Of a stretch of DNA of 64,000 nt, positions 10,312 through 25,728 are shown one piece after another. Source of the stretch: Trueperaceae bacterium (lineage in GTDB: Bacteria; Deinococcota; Deinococci; Deinococcales; Trueperaceae). The position numbers and the translations under genes were made by a program. The notes under the pieces are model-generated. The model saw only the letters and a program-made list of their open reading frames with translations, did no database searches and was not told the origin of the DNA. The stretch lies in contig CBDCDZ010000004.1 in assembly GCA_965215565.1 (NCBI GenBank), forward strand, positions 2,880,001 to 2,944,000. Reading direction: 5' to 3'. Numbering within the stretch: the first letter of the stretch is position 1; every line of letters starts with the position of its first letter.

Positions 10312-11079
10312 CTAATTTATGGATGTAGGTACGTTTGAATGCGCAACTGGCAAGTGCGCAGAGACACGCTGCGCGATGACCTCTGTGAGCAGCGCGTCGT
10401 AGGAGAGATAGTCTGCCAGCTTTAGGTCAATATTCGGATAAACTTCCTGCGCCGTCCCAATCGCCTCGGGTAAGTCGAGCGCCACGTGCCCGCCGAGCTG
10501 TAAAAAGTAGGGCGCAGCGACGATCTGCTCGGCGCTCGTCTCATCTACGAGCTTTTGTATGCCTTTAGCGATGTCGGGCGTGTTGATCTCCATGAAACTC
10601 ACCTGGACCGCTGCATAGTCTAAGCCACGAAGGGTTTTGGCAACCTCATAAATAGGCGCGTTCGCCTCCTCGTGAGGGGTGCCGTGCGCGATGAGGAGCA
10701 GCGCGCAGCGCGCCTTGGTGCGCGCTACCGCCGCCCGGTCGAGGACCATCTGGACGAGCGCAGGGTGATATTCGAAGGCGTCGGCAATGCTAAACGTGAG
10801 GGCTGGGTGCGCCGCTCTCGCCTCCGCGATGAGCTTGGGCAGGATGCGCTTGACGTAAAAGCCTGGGATTAAAAAATAAGGTTGAACAACGATGTGCGTC
10901 GCGCCTTTGCGGGCGCAGCGCTCAACTGCGTCGGCAACGGTAGGTTTGCTGAAATTCAAGAAACCCGCCGTGGCTATAGGCGCGACACCCTGTTTGCGCA
11001 AAAGTGCCGCTAAGCGAATCATCGACGCGCCCGAGGCTTGGCGGAGGCTACCGTGTCCAACTAAAATAACGGCGTTCAT
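10312..11079 (-). CDS. sirB: sirohydrochlorin chelatase (CbiX/SirB, two domains)
   Basis: VGHGS...PYFLIPG.YV and IAHGT...PYFL..GGHV duplicated CbiX domains; next to cobA and the sulfite reductase. Confidence 0.88.
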
Positions 11080-11900
11080 AGCGTGACGTTGAGAGGTTCC
11101 GGTGCAGGTTGAGCACGCTCTACAACTTCTGAATCGAACCAGCGCAACTCGGAGCGCAGCCGCACCACCTCGCCAACGATGAGCGTCGCGGGCGCTTTTA
11201 GGCCCGCGACGCGCACCTCTTCTGCAATAGACGCCAACGTTCCTTCAACCGTTTCTTGCTCGTCCGTCGTACCCCAACGCACCATCGCCGCAGGCGTAGC
11301 GGGCGAGCGTCCTGCCCTAACAAGCGCCTCGGTAATCGCCTCTAGCCTACCCACGCCCATGAGAATTACGAGTGTATCGACGCCTGCTAAAGCGTGCCAA
11401 TCGTGACTGGAATCCACTTTACTCGGGTCCTCATGCCCCGCTACAATCGCCACCGACGCTGCGAGGTTGCGGTGCGTGACCGGAATCCCGGCGTAGGCGG
11501 GCGCAGCCACCGCCGACGAGATGCCCGGCACGACTTCAAAGGGAATATTCGCCTCGCGAAGCGCCAGTGCCTCTTCGCCGCCGCGCCCAAAGATGAAGGG
11601 ATCGCCGCCCTTGAGCCGCACGACCTCTTTGCCTAACTTCGCTTTCTCCACCAGCAGCGCGCTGATAGCCTCTTGCGAATACGAGGACTGGACGCCGTGC
11701 TTGCCGACGTAAATAAGCTCCGCGTCGGCGCGACAGTGCTGCAGCAGCTTGGGATTGACGAGGCGGTCGTAGGCGACGACTTCGGCGTTTTGCAAGCGGC
11801 GCAAACCTTTGATGGTCAAGAGTTCAGGATCGCCTGGGCCCGCGCCGACGAGCGAGACGAAGCCCGCCGGGGAGAGGTGAGCTGAAGAGGTGTAGGACAT
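11076..11900 (-). CDS. cobA: uroporphyrinogen-III C-methyltransferase
   Basis: [36 protein letters not shown]. Confidence 0.96.
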
Positions 11901-16903: not shown

Positions 16904-17347
16904 ATGTCCGACTATCAAGCCCTGCGAGATGAAGTGGATACGCTTAAACGCTCCGTTCAAAGCCTAGAGCAAGGCGAGCGCTTCACGATGCTCGAGAAAA
17001 TCATCGACGCCAACACCCAAGCGGTGCAAGAATTCACTGAGTCGAGCCGCTTTCAGCTCAGCGAGCAGAATCGGCGCATTGAGTCGCTCGAGGTCAAGCT
17101 GAGCGAAGAGCTAAGGCGGATGGGCGATAAGATTGACGCATTGGATGTCAAGCTCAACGGTAAAATTGACGCATTAGAAGTCAAGCTAGATGGTAAAATT
17201 GACGCACTAGAAGCTAAGCTAGACGCCAAAATCGAGAGGTTCAGAACGGATTTAGAGAACAAAATCGCCCACTCGCAGACCGTCATCTTAAGCGCGATTG
17301 CTGCGGTGGGCGTGATTCTAGCGGCGATTCAGATTATTACGGCGTGA
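16904..17347 (+). CDS. coiled-coil protein with 11-residue repeats and C-terminal membrane anchor (DUF1640/CCDC90-like)
   Basis: KIDALDVKLNG/KIDALEVKLDG/KIDALEAKLDA repeats; C-terminal hydrophobic helix; TATAAT 8 nt upstream. Confidence 0.75.
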   Translation: MSDYQALRDEVDTLKRSVQSLEQGERFTMLEKIIDANTQAVQEFTESSRFQLSEQNRRIESLEVKLSEELRRMGDKIDALDVKLNGKIDALEVKLDGKIDALEAKLDAKIERFRTDLENKIAHSQTVILSAIAAVGVILAAIQIITA

Positions 17348-18187: not shown

Positions 18188-20470
18188 ATGAAAACTTTCG
18201 CGGAGGAAGAAAGCTTGAAAAGCGCCCTCATCGACGTACTGAGCCAAGATGAGGTCGATGGCGATGAGCTTTTAGCGCTGTCTAACGCGCTCACCAAGTC
18301 TGACCCCAACGCAGTTCGCTTCTCGGTTGACGCAAGTCTTATCAGCCGGTTAGGGCGCGAACTCGTGGCGCGGCAAGAAACGGCGGTTGCTGAACTCGTT
18401 AAAAACGCCTACGACGCAGATGCGCGTAAAGTCACGCTAGTTTTTTCAGAAGCGGACGCGCCGGGGGGTAGGCTCGAGCTAACCGATGACGGCTTAGGGA
18501 TGACGCGAGACCAGCTCGTGAACGGTTTTATGCGACTCGCCTCAGGGCAAAAGGTGGACGAACCCATCTCGCCGAGGTACAAACGCCAGCGCGCAGGGCG
18601 TAAAGGCATCGGGCGCTTTGCAGTGCAGCGGCTCGGGGACAGACTCACGATTACGACGCAGACGAAGGGCAGTTCGGTTGCGCTCAGAGTGATCGTAGAT
18701 TGGGACAGGTTTGCGGCAGGTCAAGATTTGGCGAGCATCTCCAGCCGTATCACTGAAATCCCTAAGCAAAAAGAAGAGGGGACGACGCTCCTCATCGACG
18801 GACTGCGCGAAGCCTGGAACGAAGCGGCGATCAAAAAGGTCTACAAATACGTCTCAGACCTTATCCAGCCCTTTCCGCTCTCTGAGAAGGGCGAAGCCCG
18901 CATTGACCCCGGCTTCAAAATTGACCTCTTGCGCGAGGTTGCAGGAGAATTCGAGCTTGTCGCCGACGAAACGACGGAGATTTTTCAGCACGCGCTGGCT
19001 GAGATAGAAGGCTACGTCGATAATAAGGGAAAGGGATTTTGGTCTATTGCGTCGGATAGGCTCGAGCTTGCTGAAATTGATCAATCTATTAGGGATAGCC
19101 GAGAAAATAGAGAACTTGCTTTTAACAGTTTGCAAAATACAAGGCTGAAGGCTTACTACTTCATCTACAACGGTTCTGGAGCCAATTTTCTCCCTCGCTC
19201 AGCGAACAAAATGATCAGAGATTTAGCCCAAGAAAGGGGCGGCATCAGAGTTTACCGAAACGGCTTCCGAGTCTCGCCCTACGGCGACTCTGACAATGAT
19301 TGGCTTGGTCTGGACGAGCTTGCTAGACGCCGCTCTTTTCTACCTGCTATTGGCAATATCAACTTCTTCGGCTTCATTGAAATAGTCGACATAGGAGGCG
19401 ACTACTTTGAGGAAACATCCAGCCGCGAAGGACTCCTAGAAAACTCGGCATTTCAAGAGTTACAAGACTTCACGCATAGAGTACTCAAAGCTGCAGCCAC
19501 CAAAGTTGCTGAAGCGAGAGGTAAGAAAATCACGGCGAGTCAAAAAGACTATAAAACGGACCCCTCGGCGGTTATTACGAAAGCGATCAAATCGGTTGAT
19601 AGGTTGGCGAAAGAGCTGGTCGGCGCAGGTCAATCTGATGAGGCGAAGCAACTTAAAGGCGTTTCAAAACAGCTCAAAATGGCGGCTGCTATTCAGAGCG
19701 ATGTTCTCGAAGAACTTTCGATGCTGCGCGTACTTGCTAGCTTAGGTCTCACCATCAGTGAGTTCACCCATGAAGTTCAGCAGACTTTGGGCGCGGCTTC
19801 CCTGAGTGCCAAGCATATTTTAGAAGCTACATCACCTGATTCAGAGCGGCGTGAGATTGCTCATGACTTATTAGTCAACATTCAGAGGTTTCAGGCTTAC
19901 GCAGTGTATTTTCAGAAGTCAGTCTCTGACAATATCAACCGGGAACTCGAGCCACAAGACGCGGCTAAAGTTGCTAAAAATTTTGTAAATACGGTGCAGC
20001 TCGCAGCAAAAAGCGTTGGTATTTGCGTAGAACAGCCCGAGGTTGTCGGTACTGATCTTATGACCTGTCCAATGCACTCTTCCGAATGGAGTTCGGTTTT
20101 GTTCAATCTCTATACAAACGCTCGTAAGGCGATTGCGAGAGCGAGAAGTGACGGAAAAATTTTCATCCGAGTTGGAAAAGAGGGTAAAAAGGTCTATTTG
20201 GAATTTGCGGATAACGGTGACGGTATACCTAAGGAGAATGAGGAGCGAATCTTCAACGCATTTTTCACAACGACTGGAACCGCAGGGCGCTACGCCACTG
20301 ACGAAGAAGAAATTCAAGGTACGGGCTTGGGTCTGAAGATTGTAGACGATATTGCTACGAGCTACAACGGTGACGTTTCTTTGGTTGCGTCCCAAAAAGG
20401 GTATGCAACTTGCTTTAGAATAGAATTTCCTGAAGCGACCCCAAAGGAACTTGAGGCTTATGGCTACTAA
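18188..20470 (+). CDS. MORC-like GHKL ATPase fused to a C-terminal histidine kinase
   Basis: N-terminal GHKL motifs ELVKNAYDA, DDGLGM, GRKGIGR, GTT; S5-like region with YRNGFRV and SSREG; then H-box EFTHE, N-box NLYTNA, DNGDGI, IFNAFFTT, GTGLGL; no transmembrane segment. Confidence 0.9.
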   Translation: MKTFAEEESLKSALIDVLSQDEVDGDELLALSNALTKSDPNAVRFSVDASLISRLGRELVARQETAVAELVKNAYDADARKVTLVFSEADAPGGRLELTDDGLGMTRDQLVNGFMRLASGQKVDEPISPRYKRQRAGRKGIGRFAVQRLGDRLTITTQTKGSSVALRVIVDWDRFAAGQDLASISSRITEIPKQKEEGTTLLIDGLREAWNEAAIKKVYKYVSDLIQPFPLSEKGEARIDPGFKIDLLREVAGEFELVADETTEIFQHALAEIEGYVDNKGKGFWSIASDRLELAEIDQSIRDSRENRELAFNSLQNTRLKAYYFIYNGSGANFLPRSANKMIRDLAQERGGIRVYRNGFRVSPYGDSDNDWLGLDELARRRSFLPAIGNINFFGFIEIVDIGGDYFEETSSREGLLENSAFQELQDFTHRVLKAAATKVAEARGKKITASQKDYKTDPSAVITKAIKSVDRLAKELVGAGQSDEAKQLKGVSKQLKMAAAIQSDVLEELSMLRVLASLGLTISEFTHEVQQTLGAASLSAKHILEATSPDSERREIAHDLLVNIQRFQAYAVYFQKSVSDNINRELEPQDAAKVAKNFVNTVQLAAKSVGICVEQPEVVGTDLMTCPMHSSEWSSVLFNLYTNARKAIARARSDGKIFIRVGKEGKKVYLEFADNGDGIPKENEERIFNAFFTTTGTAGRYATDEEEIQGTGLGLKIVDDIATSYNGDVSLVASQKGYATCFRIEFPEATPKELEAYGY

Positions 20471-21635
20471 ATATCTTTACTTAGACGACGAAAAGCCTGA
20501 AGCTGTGCGACCTTTTTTGCGAGAGTTGCAGCAGCGCGGTAGAGACCTCGAGATTGAACATCATCCTCCTTTGCCCTACCACAACCAACTTCCCTGGCTC
20601 GATCTGCAAACCTTTGACGGTCTTATTCTTGATTTGCGCTTAGACCAATTTCCAAATTGGCAGCCAGACTCTGAGGCAGGCAAGGCGGAGTTTAGAGCGA
20701 CGACGCTCGCTCAGGAAATTCGTACACGGGCGACGGAAGACTCTAAAGCCTTTCAAACGCCCATTGTGCTTTTGTCAACGGATGAGAGGTTGCAACAGAG
20801 CTACACGCGCGATGACACGAGTCACGACCTCTTCGATCTGAAGTGTCTCAAGTCGGATATCAGTAATGATGCGAAAAGAGCAGAAGTGATAGCTTATCAG
20901 CTTTTGTCCTTAGCTAGGGGCTACCAGGAGATTGCTGCGGTGCGTTCCAAGAAGAGAGGTCCAGGTTCTCAGTTTCACAAGTTTCTCGGTCTCGAAGAAC
21001 CTCCCGAATTTCTCGACCCAAGAATTCTGAGTTACTTTGAAGGTAGGGGAAGTCCTCTACCCGCGCATGAGTATGCTCGTTTCATTCTTCGCGAGCTGCT
21101 TAGCAAACCGGGACCGCTTATTGATGAGTTGACATTAGCCGCGCGTCTCGGCGTGGACACTGCCACTTCAGAAGATTGGGAAAAGCTCAAAGGCAAGCTT
21201 AGTGAAACAGCTAGATTTACTGGACCGTTTAGAGAAGGTTGGCCGCGTTGGTGGGCTGTTCCCCTCGTGACCTGGTGGCGCTCCCTAGCTGACGATACGC
21301 TGCCCCTACGAACAATGCCCGCCTCTCAGCGCGTCGAATTGCTCCGCGAGCACACGGGCTTGCAGGAGTTAGTACCCGCAAAGCCTATCCGTAAAGGATA
21401 CAGCGAGACCTTTTGGACGCTCTGTCAAGCATTACAACAGCCTCTTGACCCTCGCGATGGACTCATCATTGACAGACCGAACGCGAAGTTATGGCAAGAT
21501 AAGCTTTACGTCTCGCTCGAGGCTGAGCTAACTCGCGAGCGTCGCATGAAGGGGCTGCGACTTGACCCGCTCGATAAAGGGAGATTGCCGAGACTAAGAG
21601 CCAGATTGCAAGGTGACGGAGTAGCCTCTTCCTAG
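20460..21635 (+). CDS. atypical response-regulator receiver domain protein with large C-terminal domain of unknown function
   Basis: YLYLDDE...DGLILDLRLD (phosphoacceptor Asp)...PIVLLST; ATG 20460 overlaps the kinase stop. Confidence 0.75.
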   Translation: MATKYLYLDDEKPEAVRPFLRELQQRGRDLEIEHHPPLPYHNQLPWLDLQTFDGLILDLRLDQFPNWQPDSEAGKAEFRATTLAQEIRTRATEDSKAFQTPIVLLSTDERLQQSYTRDDTSHDLFDLKCLKSDISNDAKRAEVIAYQLLSLARGYQEIAAVRSKKRGPGSQFHKFLGLEEPPEFLDPRILSYFEGRGSPLPAHEYARFILRELLSKPGPLIDELTLAARLGVDTATSEDWEKLKGKLSETARFTGPFREGWPRWWAVPLVTWWRSLADDTLPLRTMPASQRVELLREHTGLQELVPAKPIRKGYSETFWTLCQALQQPLDPRDGLIIDRPNAKLWQDKLYVSLEAELTRERRMKGLRLDPLDKGRLPRLRARLQGDGVASS

Positions 21636-21636
21636 C

Positions 21637-22347
21637 GTGAATGCGAGGCGAGCAAAGGAGTTGAGGCGGGCAAAGGAGTTTAGAAAAGAACGAGCGCGTG
21701 AACTGCGAAGCCTCGCGGAGATTTTGCAAGTGGCAGGACTCGTTAGGGACGCAAGCCCGCTCCTCAGTGCTGCGGGACAATGCGGAGATAGCGCTCCACA
21801 CGGCGAGCTTTTGTGGAGCTATGAATTTGCCGGTCTCGAGTTCAACCTTGATTTTGACGAGCTACGACATTCGAAACCCGAAGGGGCAGAACTCGACACA
21901 GTTGAGTTGAGCGTGTCGCTCAGTGGTATGTGTTTAGACGAGAGCCTATCCGATGATCCTTTTACGCACCTAAGTGTCAACGTCGTTTTGCACGGCTTGA
22001 GCCAAAACGCTGAACCTCTGATGGACGCTTGGCATCTCGACAAACATCTAGGGGGTAAGAGTTCGTTTGAGCACCCCGACTATCACTTTCATCACGGCGG
22101 TAGGAAAATCTGGGAATCGCAAAACTTCGATTACGGGTCACATCTTTTGCTTGAGTCTCCCCGCCTAGACCATAAACCATTGGACGGGATTTTAGCTGTG
22201 AACTTTGTGCTCGCCAACTTTGCGGGAGCAGCTTGGCAGACCTTAAAAGCTGAAGAGATAAGGTACATGGAACTGGTTCACGACGCTGAAAAGCGCTGCC
22301 ATTTAGCCTACGTTCACGCTTCCCTCGAGCGTCTACAAAAGCTGTGA
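21637..22347 (+). CDS. hypothetical protein with His-rich motif (possibly DUF2290-like)
   Basis: WHLDKH...HPDYHFHHGG...PRLDHKPLD; starts 1 nt after the previous stop. Confidence 0.7.
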   Translation: MNARRAKELRRAKEFRKERARELRSLAEILQVAGLVRDASPLLSAAGQCGDSAPHGELLWSYEFAGLEFNLDFDELRHSKPEGAELDTVELSVSLSGMCLDESLSDDPFTHLSVNVVLHGLSQNAEPLMDAWHLDKHLGGKSSFEHPDYHFHHGGRKIWESQNFDYGSHLLLESPRLDHKPLDGILAVNFVLANFAGAAWQTLKAEEIRYMELVHDAEKRCHLAYVHASLERLQKL

Positions 22348-22348
22348 G

Positions 22349-24058
22349 TTAGCGCTTCATTCGCCTGTCACGCAGATAGTGATATCCCTCCCGCAAGAGG
22401 GTGCATCCATCCTCTTCTAGCCCTAAGCCTTTTCGCAGTACAAGCGCGTCACCGATATCTAAAGCATCCTCGAGGTCACCATCTCTTAGAGATGTATCTA
22501 TCGCTTTGTACGTAACATCGAGGTCATCTTCAGAGAGGTGATGAGGCAGCGCCACTAAAACTTTACGCGCCTCGCCGGGCTCGAGCTTGAGCATCCCACC
22601 CCCGAGGCTATGCCCTTCTATTTCGGCGCTTAAAAAGGTTAAAGAGGTGTACCAGGAGATGACGAGGTGCTTGATGTCTACGCTCATAGACTCTTCATAA
22701 ATCGTTTCGGGAAGCTCAACGGTGTGCAGTGTGTTGGGTGCAGGTGCGCCGAGGGTGTTGTGGACGAGCCTCGGTCCGCTATTCGACATGTAGGTGAGTA
22801 GCGCCGCGCCGCGTTTGACGTGCGGAACTGCGTACCAGGGGTTTCGCTTGCTGACCTTGTAGCCTTGACGGACTTTTTCGCCTTCTCGCCCTAAGTAAGC
22901 CTGGACTCCTGCCGGTAGGCGCTCGAAGGGCTGATTTGTGGGTATCTCGAGCAACCACTTCTTCTCCTCTTCGAGGCGTTGCCAATCACTTTCTGACACA
23001 AAGAGACCGCTCAAGTTGCTGCTGCGGCGGAGGCAGGGCGCGCAGTAGTGCATAGGTATATCGAAGGTCTCTATCTCCTGCTGCGACAGGTGGAAGAAAC
23101 CATTAGCACCCGTGACGTACCCGATACCGATACGAGCCACTGAGCCGAATGTTTTGACGTGCGCGCGTAGTGCGAGGTGACGGTAGAGGGCTCGCACTTT
23201 AGGCTCGAGAAGATGCCCGAGTAAGCGCGTTCGCCCCGCTTTGAGGCTCGAGACCTCTTCGCGGCTGAGCGTCTTCACGTGACCCACCGCGCTCAAAGAT
23301 TTTTCGGCAATAAACGCTTCTAAGCGATCTGCGTCTTTTACGTCAACGAGGTTGAAAACGCTCGCCTCACCTCCTTTCGCTTCGCCCAACACAATAAAGG
23401 TGTCTTCTCCTAAAGTGGGAAAAAGGCGCTTTTGGAAGGTGAGGATATTAAGTGTGGCGAATTGGTTGAGGAGAAACTCAAGAACATGCCTAGCATACGC
23501 CGCGTGACCCAACTCCGCAGGCGCAACCATCGCTAAGCGTCCTCCAGGTTTGATGAGGCTAACGGCGTGCACCAAAAAAGGAGCCCACGAACTTGCGTGT
23601 CTGGGCAAATTGACGCCTAAGTCTGCTGCGCGCTCGAGCCCGAGCGCTCGTTCTTTTCCCTTGAAGCTTTGATAGCGGATAAAGGGCGGATTGCCTACAA
23701 CTGCCTCAAACGCCTCCACAGGCGAAGAGCGGTCAAAGTTGTCCTCAAAGAAGCTATCCGACTCGAAAAAGTTACCTTGCCATAGCTTGACAATCTGATA
23801 GTGGCTCTCTAAGTATTTTTTGCTCGCGTTATAGACAATCTCGTCTAGCTCAATGCCATAAATCTGTTCGCTCGGGCGAGCAACTTGACGCCCAGAGGCT
23901 TCTAAAAAGACGCCGTTGCCGAAGCTAGGGTCGATCACATTAAAGTCCGTTTGCCGCACTGCCCAATGCACCATGAGATTAACCGCTTTATCAGGTGTGT
24001 AGTAGGCACCAAACGCTTTGGCGCGTTCACCTGTCGGTGCGGTCCGAATGTCACTCAC
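22349..24058 (-). CDS. gamma-class N6-adenine DNA methyltransferase
   Basis: GAYYTP (motif X), IDPSFGNGVFL (motif I), GNPPF (motif IV), C-terminal EGHSLGGGMLKLEP; GTG 24058 has TAGACT 7 nt upstream. Confidence 0.9.
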   Translation of the reverse strand: MSDIRTAPTGERAKAFGAYYTPDKAVNLMVHWAVRQTDFNVIDPSFGNGVFLEASGRQVARPSEQIYGIELDEIVYNASKKYLESHYQIVKLWQGNFFESDSFFEDNFDRSSPVEAFEAVVGNPPFIRYQSFKGKERALGLERAADLGVNLPRHASSWAPFLVHAVSLIKPGGRLAMVAPAELGHAAYARHVLEFLLNQFATLNILTFQKRLFPTLGEDTFIVLGEAKGGEASVFNLVDVKDADRLEAFIAEKSLSAVGHVKTLSREEVSSLKAGRTRLLGHLLEPKVRALYRHLALRAHVKTFGSVARIGIGYVTGANGFFHLSQQEIETFDIPMHYCAPCLRRSSNLSGLFVSESDWQRLEEEKKWLLEIPTNQPFERLPAGVQAYLGREGEKVRQGYKVSKRNPWYAVPHVKRGAALLTYMSNSGPRLVHNTLGAPAPNTLHTVELPETIYEESMSVDIKHLVISWYTSLTFLSAEIEGHSLGGGMLKLEPGEARKVLVALPHHLSEDDLDVTYKAIDTSLRDGDLEDALDIGDALVLRKGLGLEEDGCTLLREGYHYLRDRRMKR

Positions 24059-24150
24059 TAGGCTGAGTCTACCAGGTCTGTGAAGGTTGGAAATGGGGCT
24101 CGAGCCTCCACCACTCACAACGCCACAACATGAAGAATTTGACACATTTA

Positions 24151-24264
24151 CAGCAGGTATCATCTGGTCATAAACGCCCTCAGTCTGCAAATTCAACGTC
24201 TGGCACGCACGTTTCGAGGTGATACTTGCGTTATTTTAGCTCAGCAGATGTAGTGAACGCCGTA
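24151..24264 (+). repeat. dispersed intergenic repeat, copy 5
   Basis: CAGCAGGTATCATCTGGTC..ACGCCCTCA...GGCACGCAC...GGTGATACTTGC...CTCAG. Confidence 0.8.
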
Positions 24265-24350
24265 TCCATCCGCGTGATGACGCTCACATCTTTCTAATGA
24301 ACGTTAAAGTTTCAACGAGGTGTGAGGAATGACTGTGGCTTCATAGGGGT

Positions 24351-25728
24351 ATGTCAGAGACCCCCTCACGCCGCGACGTCTTGCGCCTACTTGCAAGCGT
24401 CGGAGCGGGCGCACTCCTCGCGGGGTGTGCACCTGAAGCGAAAGCCAAAGTCACGCCCCCTCCGCGCACCGTCCCTATGGGCTCACCCAACATCATCTTT
24501 ATCCTTGTGGACGACTTGGGCGATCATGAGCTGTCTTGCGCGGGCAACACCTTTAACGAAACGCCGCACATCAACGCGCTGGCACGGGGCGGCATGACCT
24601 TCTACTCAAGCCTACGCCGCCGCGCCCGTCTGCTCACCGACGCGGGCAGCGCTGATGACGGGTCTCGCGCCCGCTCGCACGGGCATCACTGACTTTTTGA
24701 AAGAGCACGATGAGAAGTACTTAGACCCCAACCACCTCACCCTCAACGAAGCCCTGAAGTCGGCGGGTTACGCGACGGGCTTAGTCGGCAAATGGCATCT
24801 CACAGGCGACTACGACAAAAGGCGCGGTGAGCCCTCCAAACACGGCTGGGATGAGGTGCACCTTTCCGAAACGCGCTACATCGCGCACGGCGACTACTTC
24901 GCGCCTTACGACTTCATGCCGGAGGTCAGAGCGCCCAAGGGCGAACACTTGACCGACGCCTTGCACCGCGAAGCGCTCAGCTTTATCGAGCGGCACCGCG
25001 ATGAGCCCTTCTTCTTGTACCTCTCACACTACGCGGTCCATACACTCTTGGAGGGCAAGCCCGAAAAAGTGGCGAAGTATAAGCGCAAGCGCGGCTCGAG
25101 AAAGCACAAGCCGCAGCTAGCCGCGATGCTAGAAAGTATCGACGAAGGCGTCGGACAGATCATCCAGACGCTCGAAAATACCGGGCTTTTAGAAAACACG
25201 CTCGTCGTTTTCACCTCGGACAACGGCGGTGACCACCTCTCCATGTCGCCCTCAGACGCGCGCGGCGCGAAGTCGCACCTCTACGAAGCGGGCATCCGCG
25301 TGCCTTTAATCGCGCACTGGCCCGCTATGATTGCGCCGGGGACGCGCTCGGACGTGGCGACGACGACGATGGACTTCTACCCGACCTTTACGGAACTGTC
25401 TTCTGCTATGAATACGCCGCGCTCGCTCGACGGCTCGAGCCTCCTCCCACTCTTCAGAGGCGAAACCCCTGAGCGCAGCGCCCTCTACTGGCACTATCCG
25501 CGCAGCCATCCGCACCCGGACGGCGGACGCTCCTCGGGCGCGATTCGCAAGGGAGACTACAAGCTCGTCGAGTTTTTCGACACGGGTGAAGTGGAGCTTT
25601 ACGACCTGCGCAGAGACGCAGGCGAGACGCGCAACTTAGCAGGTGCTCAGCCCGAGAAAGTTTTGGAACTCAAGGCGCAACTTAACGGTTGGCGCGCGGG
25701 CGTAGGTGCGGGGACCGTCGCGACGTAA
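24351..25728 (+). pseudogene. arylsulfatase (Tat lipoprotein) interrupted by a +1 frameshift near 24604
   Basis: SRRDVL Tat motif, LLAGC lipobox, PNIIFILVDDLG. Deleting one base at TTCTACTCAAGCC restores MTFTQAYAAAPVCSPTRAALMTG (CxPxR), which joins the downstream GKWHL, SDNGG and YEAGIRVP motifs. Confidence 0.85.

Follow-up and report, generated by a model that had tools for sequence, protein, structure and literature searches.

Which function could join a soluble histidine kinase, a receiver protein, a small protein with invariant histidines and a DNA methylase in a single block of closely packed genes? The question is raised by positions 18188 to 24058 of a 64,000-nucleotide stretch of DNA from a Trueperaceae bacterium (the whole stretch is referred to here as the window), for which a preliminary description had proposed a defence system resembling restriction-modification (R-M), with a phosphorelay controlling an effector and the methylase marking self DNA. 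We compared the block with related loci in genomes, metagenomes, a plasmid and viral contigs, and followed its first three genes (the triad) together with the modification enzymes beside them (the partners). We judge it rather probable that the triad and its partner make up an anti-phage module of the type described as Ambrosia (AbrR-AbrA-AbrB-AbrC-AbrD; bioRxiv 10.1101/2025.09.30.679545), in which gene 3 would be activated by the relay and the modification enzyme would act as a co-component rather than as a self mark.

The triad and its modification partners

A profile of gene 2 retrieved 37 loci from GTDB genomes; gene 1 precedes gene 2 in all 37 and gene 3 follows it in 36, the sole locus without gene 3 being one in which the sequence ends inside gene 2. 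A second, independent scan started from gene 3 in metagenomes, and of its 160 matches the best 80 were kept; gene 2 lies upstream in 72 of these 80 loci (seven of the misses end within 178 bp, and one is a remnant cut by an insertion sequence beside a transposase), and gene 1 is present in all 41 that extend far enough (2.5 kb) to show it. We take genes 1 to 3, on these sequence comparisons, to be a conserved unit. The named hosts include Bacteroidota, Pyrinomonadaceae, Geobacter, Anaerolineae, Verrucomicrobiales, Longimicrobium and Vallitalea. The spread of the triad is patchy and is that of a mobile module: gene 2 occurs in none of 40 relatives of the window genome, the block has a lower GC content at third codon positions (GC3) than its flanks, one triad locus lies on a plasmid, and gene 3 is present in viral contigs (10 loci in IMG/VR).

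For the tally of modification partners we considered 118 loci (37 from genomes, 1 from a plasmid and 80 from metagenomes), 61 of which were too short and were left out; the 57 informative loci have the whole triad, flanked on each side by at least 2 kb. A partner was found in 54 of the 57, with profiles derived from the tallied loci themselves, and in 46 of the 48 groups that remained after collapse at 70% identity (55 loci, two of the 57 lacking a full-length gene). As predicted from sequence, the partner is constant in kind and variable in identity: it is a ~570-aa N6-methyladenine (m6A) methylase that lies upstream in nearly all cases (type A, 26 of 57), a ~630-aa m6A methylase directly downstream (type B, 24 of 57), or the phosphorothioation genes SspB-SspC-SspD recognized by PADLOC (4 of 57). 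The two methylase types are ~23% alike over ~210 residues, and partners mostly overlap the triad or sit within tens of bases of it. A tree built from the triad proteins of 78 full-length loci and rooted at its midpoint puts the four Ssp loci into a single clade (support 1.0) inside the type-B loci (0.99), the type-A side being unsupported as a clade (0.06).

This swap of the triad onto Ssp phosphorothioation, mostly without SspE, appears from the gene content of the four loci to be new here. SspD overlaps gene 1 by 12-21 nt in three of them (L019, L022 and L037), whose genomes hold short N-terminal matches to the SspE model and no full-length SspE (assembly completeness is unstated); the fourth genome (L035) has a full SspE directly upstream of the triad, which stands between SspE and a convergent SspD-C-B block (L035:5414-17106). 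Relative to SspABCD-SspE and to SspABCD-SspFGH, these loci share SspB, SspC and SspD, whereas the triad itself is unrelated to SspE and the window carries a methylase. A search for SspF was silent in all four Ssp genomes and equally silent in its control set. The accessible part of a study of Acinetobacter baumannii clone 2 describes an Ssp locus without SspE near a histidine-kinase pair (PMC12421847); the available part of its supplement gives no kinase names, that of bioRxiv 2024.10.26.620419 has no passage on this lead, and no Acinetobacter is among the matches listed (120 of 916). We found no publication that deals with the gene-3 family or with a kinase triad linked to SspBCD, most subscription journals lying outside the search, and no passage on such a module in the accessible parts of Rakesh 2024 (PMC10853773) and of a 2026 BREX paper (PMC12839542).

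Other genes accompany some of these loci. A convergent, Lamassu/Pbe-like block follows the Ssp-triad at L019:11405-14136 and L022:11974-16155, with an SMC-like ABC ATPase, a small gene and, in L022, an Mrr-type nuclease. In another locus (L134:3207-4768) the triad is preceded by a gene resembling thymidylate synthase and by an adenine methylase of the D12 class, a pair that is possibly a further modification partner, and genes for a PLD/ResIII helicase and an SMC-like ATPase come after gene 3 in L133 and L134.

The neighbours of the triad include AbiEii, type I R-M, GmrSD, HNH and Mrr genes, integrases and relaxases (a list drawn up with no shuffled control). In L132 the methylase and triad are flanked by a phage integrase and a cI repressor; in L130 the triad adjoins cI and a P2-type replication gene A. 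According to the accessible text of Rousset 2022 (PMC9122126), P2-like prophages of Vibrionaceae have an anti-phage hotspot at the position between integrase and cI, and a 'Kinase-methylase' built on a related plan appears in Table S6 of that paper. No gene 2 was found in phage records, and E. coli genomes held no prophage-type stretch of genes 2 and 3. Two of the checks set by the preliminary description came out in its favour, in that the triad and a modification partner travel together across phyla and sit among defence genes and at a prophage hotspot. On a Hymenobacter plasmid we also observed a distant cassette (L137:3128-8262) consisting of an N6 methylase, a GHKL-kinase, a short receiver and, in fourth place, an MBL-fold hydrolase.

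Predicted functions of the triad proteins

The four open reading frames (ORFs) of the block, their junctions and their motifs were re-derived as first described, and the domain content claimed for the triad (two ATPase modules and an H-box in gene 1, a receiver domain with a C-terminal part in gene 2, and no visible HNH nuclease) stands. Gene 1 (18188 to 20470, forward strand, 760 aa) is, as judged from its domains and motifs, a paraMORC-type GHKL ATPase fused to a soluble histidine kinase: Pfam HATPase_c_3 matches residues 64-184 and HATPase_c residues 636-750, and a conserved middle region joins the two GHKL parts. The N-terminal part has E69, N73, D100-x-G-x-G (G102, G104) and G137-x-x-G140-x-G142, and the kinase has the H-box H528-E529, N640, N644 and D675-x-G677-x-G679; every one of these residues is kept in 78 of 78 full-length loci, across which identity to the window protein is 39-55%. 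Distant plasmid-borne GHKL-kinases (22-29% identity) were tried as relatives and set aside as other families: their receivers match the gene-2 profile barely or not at all, and there is no gene-3 match; a distant (24%) full-length GHKL-histidine kinase is present in 38 Campylobacter plasmid records.

Gene 2 (20460 to 21635, forward strand, ATG start, 391 aa) overlaps gene 1 by 11 nt. Its AlphaFold model (predicted local distance difference test score, pLDDT, 93.8) argues for a true receiver fold at the N-terminus, where residues 1-160 match receiver domains (Z 13.3, root mean square deviation 2.6 and 119 aligned residues for VanR, 7lza); structure searches with the whole model gave lists filled by receiver domains. 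Receiver residues D9, D10, the phospho-acceptor D58, S106 and K131 are in place, and all of them except S106 were scored as unchanged in 78 of 78 full-length loci, at 27-53% identity to the window protein. The C-terminal domain of ~230 aa has conserved RLG, G255, WW, C322 and W345. Gene 2 has no Pfam match and no PADLOC or NCBIfam match of note, and a sequence search of the PDB with the gene-2 and gene-3 profiles gave a best E of 0.14.

Gene 3 (21637 to 22347, forward strand, GTG start, 236 aa), which begins after a 1-nt gap, is the candidate effector. It belongs to a large family that counts 898 representatives at 50% identity and in which H133, H146, P147, H150, P175, R176 and P181 are kept in 78 of 78 full-length loci and D135 in 77, at 22-43% identity to the window protein, with no conserved Cys among these loci. 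None of 46 members matches an HNH family of Pfam (E up to 1), and the window protein has no HNH match in NCBIfam or PADLOC and no match of note in Pfam, PADLOC or NCBIfam. Its model (pLDDT 92.8) is a beta-meander plus helices, for which Foldseek returned nothing at E up to 0.001 and a wide structure comparison gave a best Z of 4.5 (none of 48,161 chains reached a Z of at least 5); no HNH chain is among the 50 structure matches listed, and one may stand further down.

The one direction in which gene 3 points is DUF2290. A language-model search placed it weakly towards this family (score 0.87, a lead only), and hhalign gave a probability of 42-45% (with 1 and 4 DUF2290 sequences); against the four proteins the values were 45%, E 2e-4 and a score of 33.7, whereas 30 column shuffles scored no higher than 20.4 and the gene-2 profile scored 16.1. 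The aligned motifs are HP-x-x-H ... P ... (I/V)DF(I/V)L-x-NF. Pfam DUF2290 (PF10053) matches none of the 46 gene-3 members, and DUF2290 relatives were found in none of the viral contigs and above the cut-off in 1 of 301 genomes; we treat the possible kinship as a weak lead and make no assignment. DUF2290 is linked to the ubiquitin E2/RWD fold. The gene-3 model matches RWD, Atg10 and Ubc9 chains at Z 3.2-3.5, under unrelated chains at Z 4.5. A helicase with DUF2290 constitutes a validated anti-T7 system (Rousset 2022, PMC9122126, accessible text), which shares the HP-x-x-H/DF-x-L-x-NF pattern with gene 3 and differs in its activator, a helicase there and the kinase relay here.

The window methylase and the surroundings of the block

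Gene 4 (22349 to 24058, reverse strand) meets gene 3 tail to tail across a 1-nt gap and is predicted to be a gamma-class, Eco57I-like N6-adenine methylase (Pfam Eco57I/N6_Mtase; PADLOC MTase_II, 6e-112; NPPF motif present). Its GTG start at 24058 is supported by a matching N-terminus in the methylase at the same site of a genus relative (G001), the open frame extending to 24196. The closest triad kin of the window, L001, is 53% identical over the three proteins (support 0.97); a cognate relationship between gene 4 and the methylase of that triad was nevertheless rejected, on an identity of 26.6% versus 45.7% to the G001 methylase (40.6% to that of a second relative, G002) and on the tree, with no formal topology test. 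Gene 4 appears to be a separately captured lineage, which it shares with the methylases of G001 and G002, and it falls into one broad family with the methylases that lie upstream in related triads.

In both genus relatives a methylase stands at the same site, beside a sulfatase gene, without the triad. That of G001 (L040:5308-7017) is intact and 46% identical to the window methylase overall, with its 5' 150 nt 93% identical to the window, a pattern in which allele replacement is possible. That of G002 (L122:1409-2569 / 11028-11528) is split by a mobile element bearing integrase and insertion-sequence genes; within this element we observed a second N6-methylase-like gene (L122:3242-4951, NPPY). 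The triad may have been gained in the lineage of the window or lost in the relatives, and both fit. A tail-to-tail layout is also found in L072 (gene 3 60% and methylase end 52% identical) and, with a different methylase, in L079.

The block is more AT-rich than its surroundings, as the preliminary description had it: its GC content is 0.517, that of the 6-kb flanks being 0.582 and 0.587, and the GC3 of its genes is 0.52-0.58, against 0.67-0.76 in four flanking genes. The dispersed repeat noted at its right edge (~24131-24246, found by BLAST, with no strand assigned) is real, with 67 other BLAST matches in the same genome, a unit of ~80-115 nt and many copies in G001 and G002. Its relation to the cassette did not hold up; the repeat lies outside the system, and it was rejected as an island boundary because G001 has no copy at the corresponding site, which points to a late insertion. 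A contig of run X1 also skips the repeat (joint 24149-24266), which, since relatives differ in having it at this site, is apparently mobile. Upstream of the block, positions 16904-17347 encode a coiled-coil protein of 147 aa, hydrophobic in a C-terminal segment, to which a stretch at another place in the genome is paralogous; downstream, a sulfatase (24351-25728) that is a single 459-aa ORF in G002 is broken into two frames near 24620-24660, near which a contig of runs X1 and X3 has a one-base difference.

Proposed phosphorelay defence and its alternatives

Ambrosia, in the accessible text of the preprint (bioRxiv 10.1101/2025.09.30.679545), comprises an XRE protein, an m6A methylase, a HATPase/kinase, a receiver and an HNH protein; it protects Pseudomonas aeruginosa from phages, every gene and receiver D60 being required, with no host toxicity during defence, and its receiver is proposed to act by transcription. 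The loci studied here share with it the N6-adenine methylase, the HATPase/histidine kinase, a receiver whose phospho-Asp lies near 60, and a fourth gene; most clade-A loci also have its order (methylase-1-2-3). They differ in that the place of the partner may also be taken by SspBCD or by a downstream methylase of a second family, and in that they occur mostly outside Gammaproteobacteria. The defining parts of Ambrosia include a HipB-like XRE regulator, and the cassette, which follows the Ambrosia plan, fails two defining features: HNH, in the place of which stands gene 3, and XRE. The receiver protein of Ambrosia also has a winged-helix domain. A crude pattern for XRE gave one plausible case (L010) among 87 loci, and Pfam HTH_3 was found upstream in L006.

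A second family of described loci bears on the same point. Proteins with GHKL, H-box and HATPase parts beside a receiver gene and R-M genes were described, in the accessible text of Bellieny-Rabelo 2021 (PMC8011034), under the name HEF_HK (PF19191), with Response_reg_2 (PF19192). The pair shares with the triad a soluble HATPase_c_3 + H-box + HATPase_c protein, an adjacent receiver gene and proximity to R-M genes, and differs in a receiver query of ~600 aa and a usual C5 methylase partner, with no gene-3-like third gene reported in that text. PF19191 and PF19192 matched neither the window proteins (E up to 0.1) nor four gene-1 and two gene-2 relatives (E up to 0.001), in a search that had no positive control. 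Further related literature, consulted in part, comprises Iyer 2008, PMC12137116 and PMC10952713.

From the triad, its partner, the intact residues and the receiver fold, which are observed, we infer the following five steps. The GHKL clamp of gene 1 would sense infection, on DNA or via the modification enzyme; the ATP cycle of this part would activate the fused kinase, with phosphorylation of H528; the phosphate would pass from H528 to D58 of gene 2; gene 2 would switch on gene 3, either through transcription, the route put forward for Ambrosia, or through direct contact; and gene 3, as an enzyme with a His/Asp/Arg site, most likely a nuclease, would halt phage replication. Gene 3 would thereby fill the slot held by the HNH nuclease in Ambrosia or by the MBL hydrolase in a distant relative, and the modification enzyme would likely be a required co-component and not a classical self mark.

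Several points weigh against this reading. The likeness of genes 1 and 2 to AbrB and AbrC is one of gene plan, a homology in sequence being hypothetical; the two intergenic stretches of the window contain no ORF for a HipB-like XRE gene; and gene 3 is called a nuclease by its position and conserved residues, because it has no convincing fold or family. All loci were collected with seeds from the triad's own family, and kin are not independent. No partner was found in three of the 57 informative loci (L036, L053 and L062), and the genus relatives that keep the methylase without the triad could mean that the link between the two is looser in this genome. The convergent methylase, correctly seen as a layout, is not the usual form of the system; identity and the tree suggest a rearrangement at this locus, involving a methylase that was acquired separately. 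Nor is the concept new, a GHKL-kinase and receiver beside methylases having been known since 2021 (PMC8011034) and validated as Ambrosia in 2025. The R-M-like phosphorelay defence first proposed therefore survives in part: co-occurrence, defence context, residues and the requirement for D60 in Ambrosia speak for it, while novelty, the self mark, the layout as the usual one and the relevance of the repeat are weakened.

The self mark separates the proposed co-component role from classical R-M, in which the partner would mark self DNA, the GHKL clamp would detect unmarked sites and the relay would license gene 3 to cut, as a third arm beside SspE and SspFGH where the partner is SspBCD. This we consider unlikely. 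It would account for a partner in 54 of 57 loci, for the three genomes in which SspB-C-D is joined to gene 1 with no full-length SspE, and for an orphan methylase in the genus relatives, a usual path of R-M decay. It is undercut because phage grown on the Ambrosia methylase stayed sensitive (bioRxiv 10.1101/2025.09.30.679545, accessible text), so that this methylase gave phage no protection; moreover, SspE is also present in L035, and a reader of fixed sequence is hard to reconcile with partners of four kinds that are unrelated or distant (two m6A families, the separately captured methylase and phosphorothioation).

The same swapping of partners across chemistries would suit a triad that monitors the modification enzyme (for example, for its inhibition by phage anti-restriction) and mounts a back-up response through gene 3, perhaps on RNA, protein or nucleotides. 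The triad within a complete SspE-SspBCD locus in L035, the fact that Ambrosia requires its methylase yet gets no self mark from it, and the weak likeness of gene 3 to DUF2290, which accompanies a helicase in a validated system against T7, lean the same way; however, contact between gene 1 and the partner is purely hypothetical and Ambrosia defends without host toxicity, and we hold this explanation to be quite improbable. A function other than phage defence, as a two-component pair regulating an orphan methylase (the accessible text of PMC8011034 proposed a regulatory role of HEF_HK over R-M systems) or as a selfish addiction unit, would fit the failure to detect a nuclease family in genes 2 and 3 but is very improbable given the prophage hotspot and defence neighbours, the obligatory third gene with its invariant His/Asp/Arg and the validated defence by Ambrosia.

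Beyond the Ambrosia-type module that we favour, a bolder version is conceivable and is put forward tentatively, with more doubt than belief: the triad might be a plug-in, phosphorelay-gated effector arm for both methylation and phosphorothioation, a third arm of Ssp systems without SspE or SspFGH, and gene 3 might found a nuclease family on a DUF2290/E2-like scaffold. The parts that merit experiment are the phosphorothioation swap and the gene-3 effector. GHKL-kinase/receiver cassettes seem to make up a modular superfamily, of which one member has been tested and in which the last gene can be exchanged (HNH, MBL hydrolase or gene 3). The exchange of m6A for phosphorothioate is a natural experiment on what a modification enzyme does if it is no self mark, the question raised by Ambrosia, and the triad may bear on Ssp loci without SspE, such as that of A. 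baumannii clone 2, whose kinase is a candidate for membership in the gene-1 family. Behind gene 3, a large family with invariant histidines and no solved relative, a new enzyme may lie.

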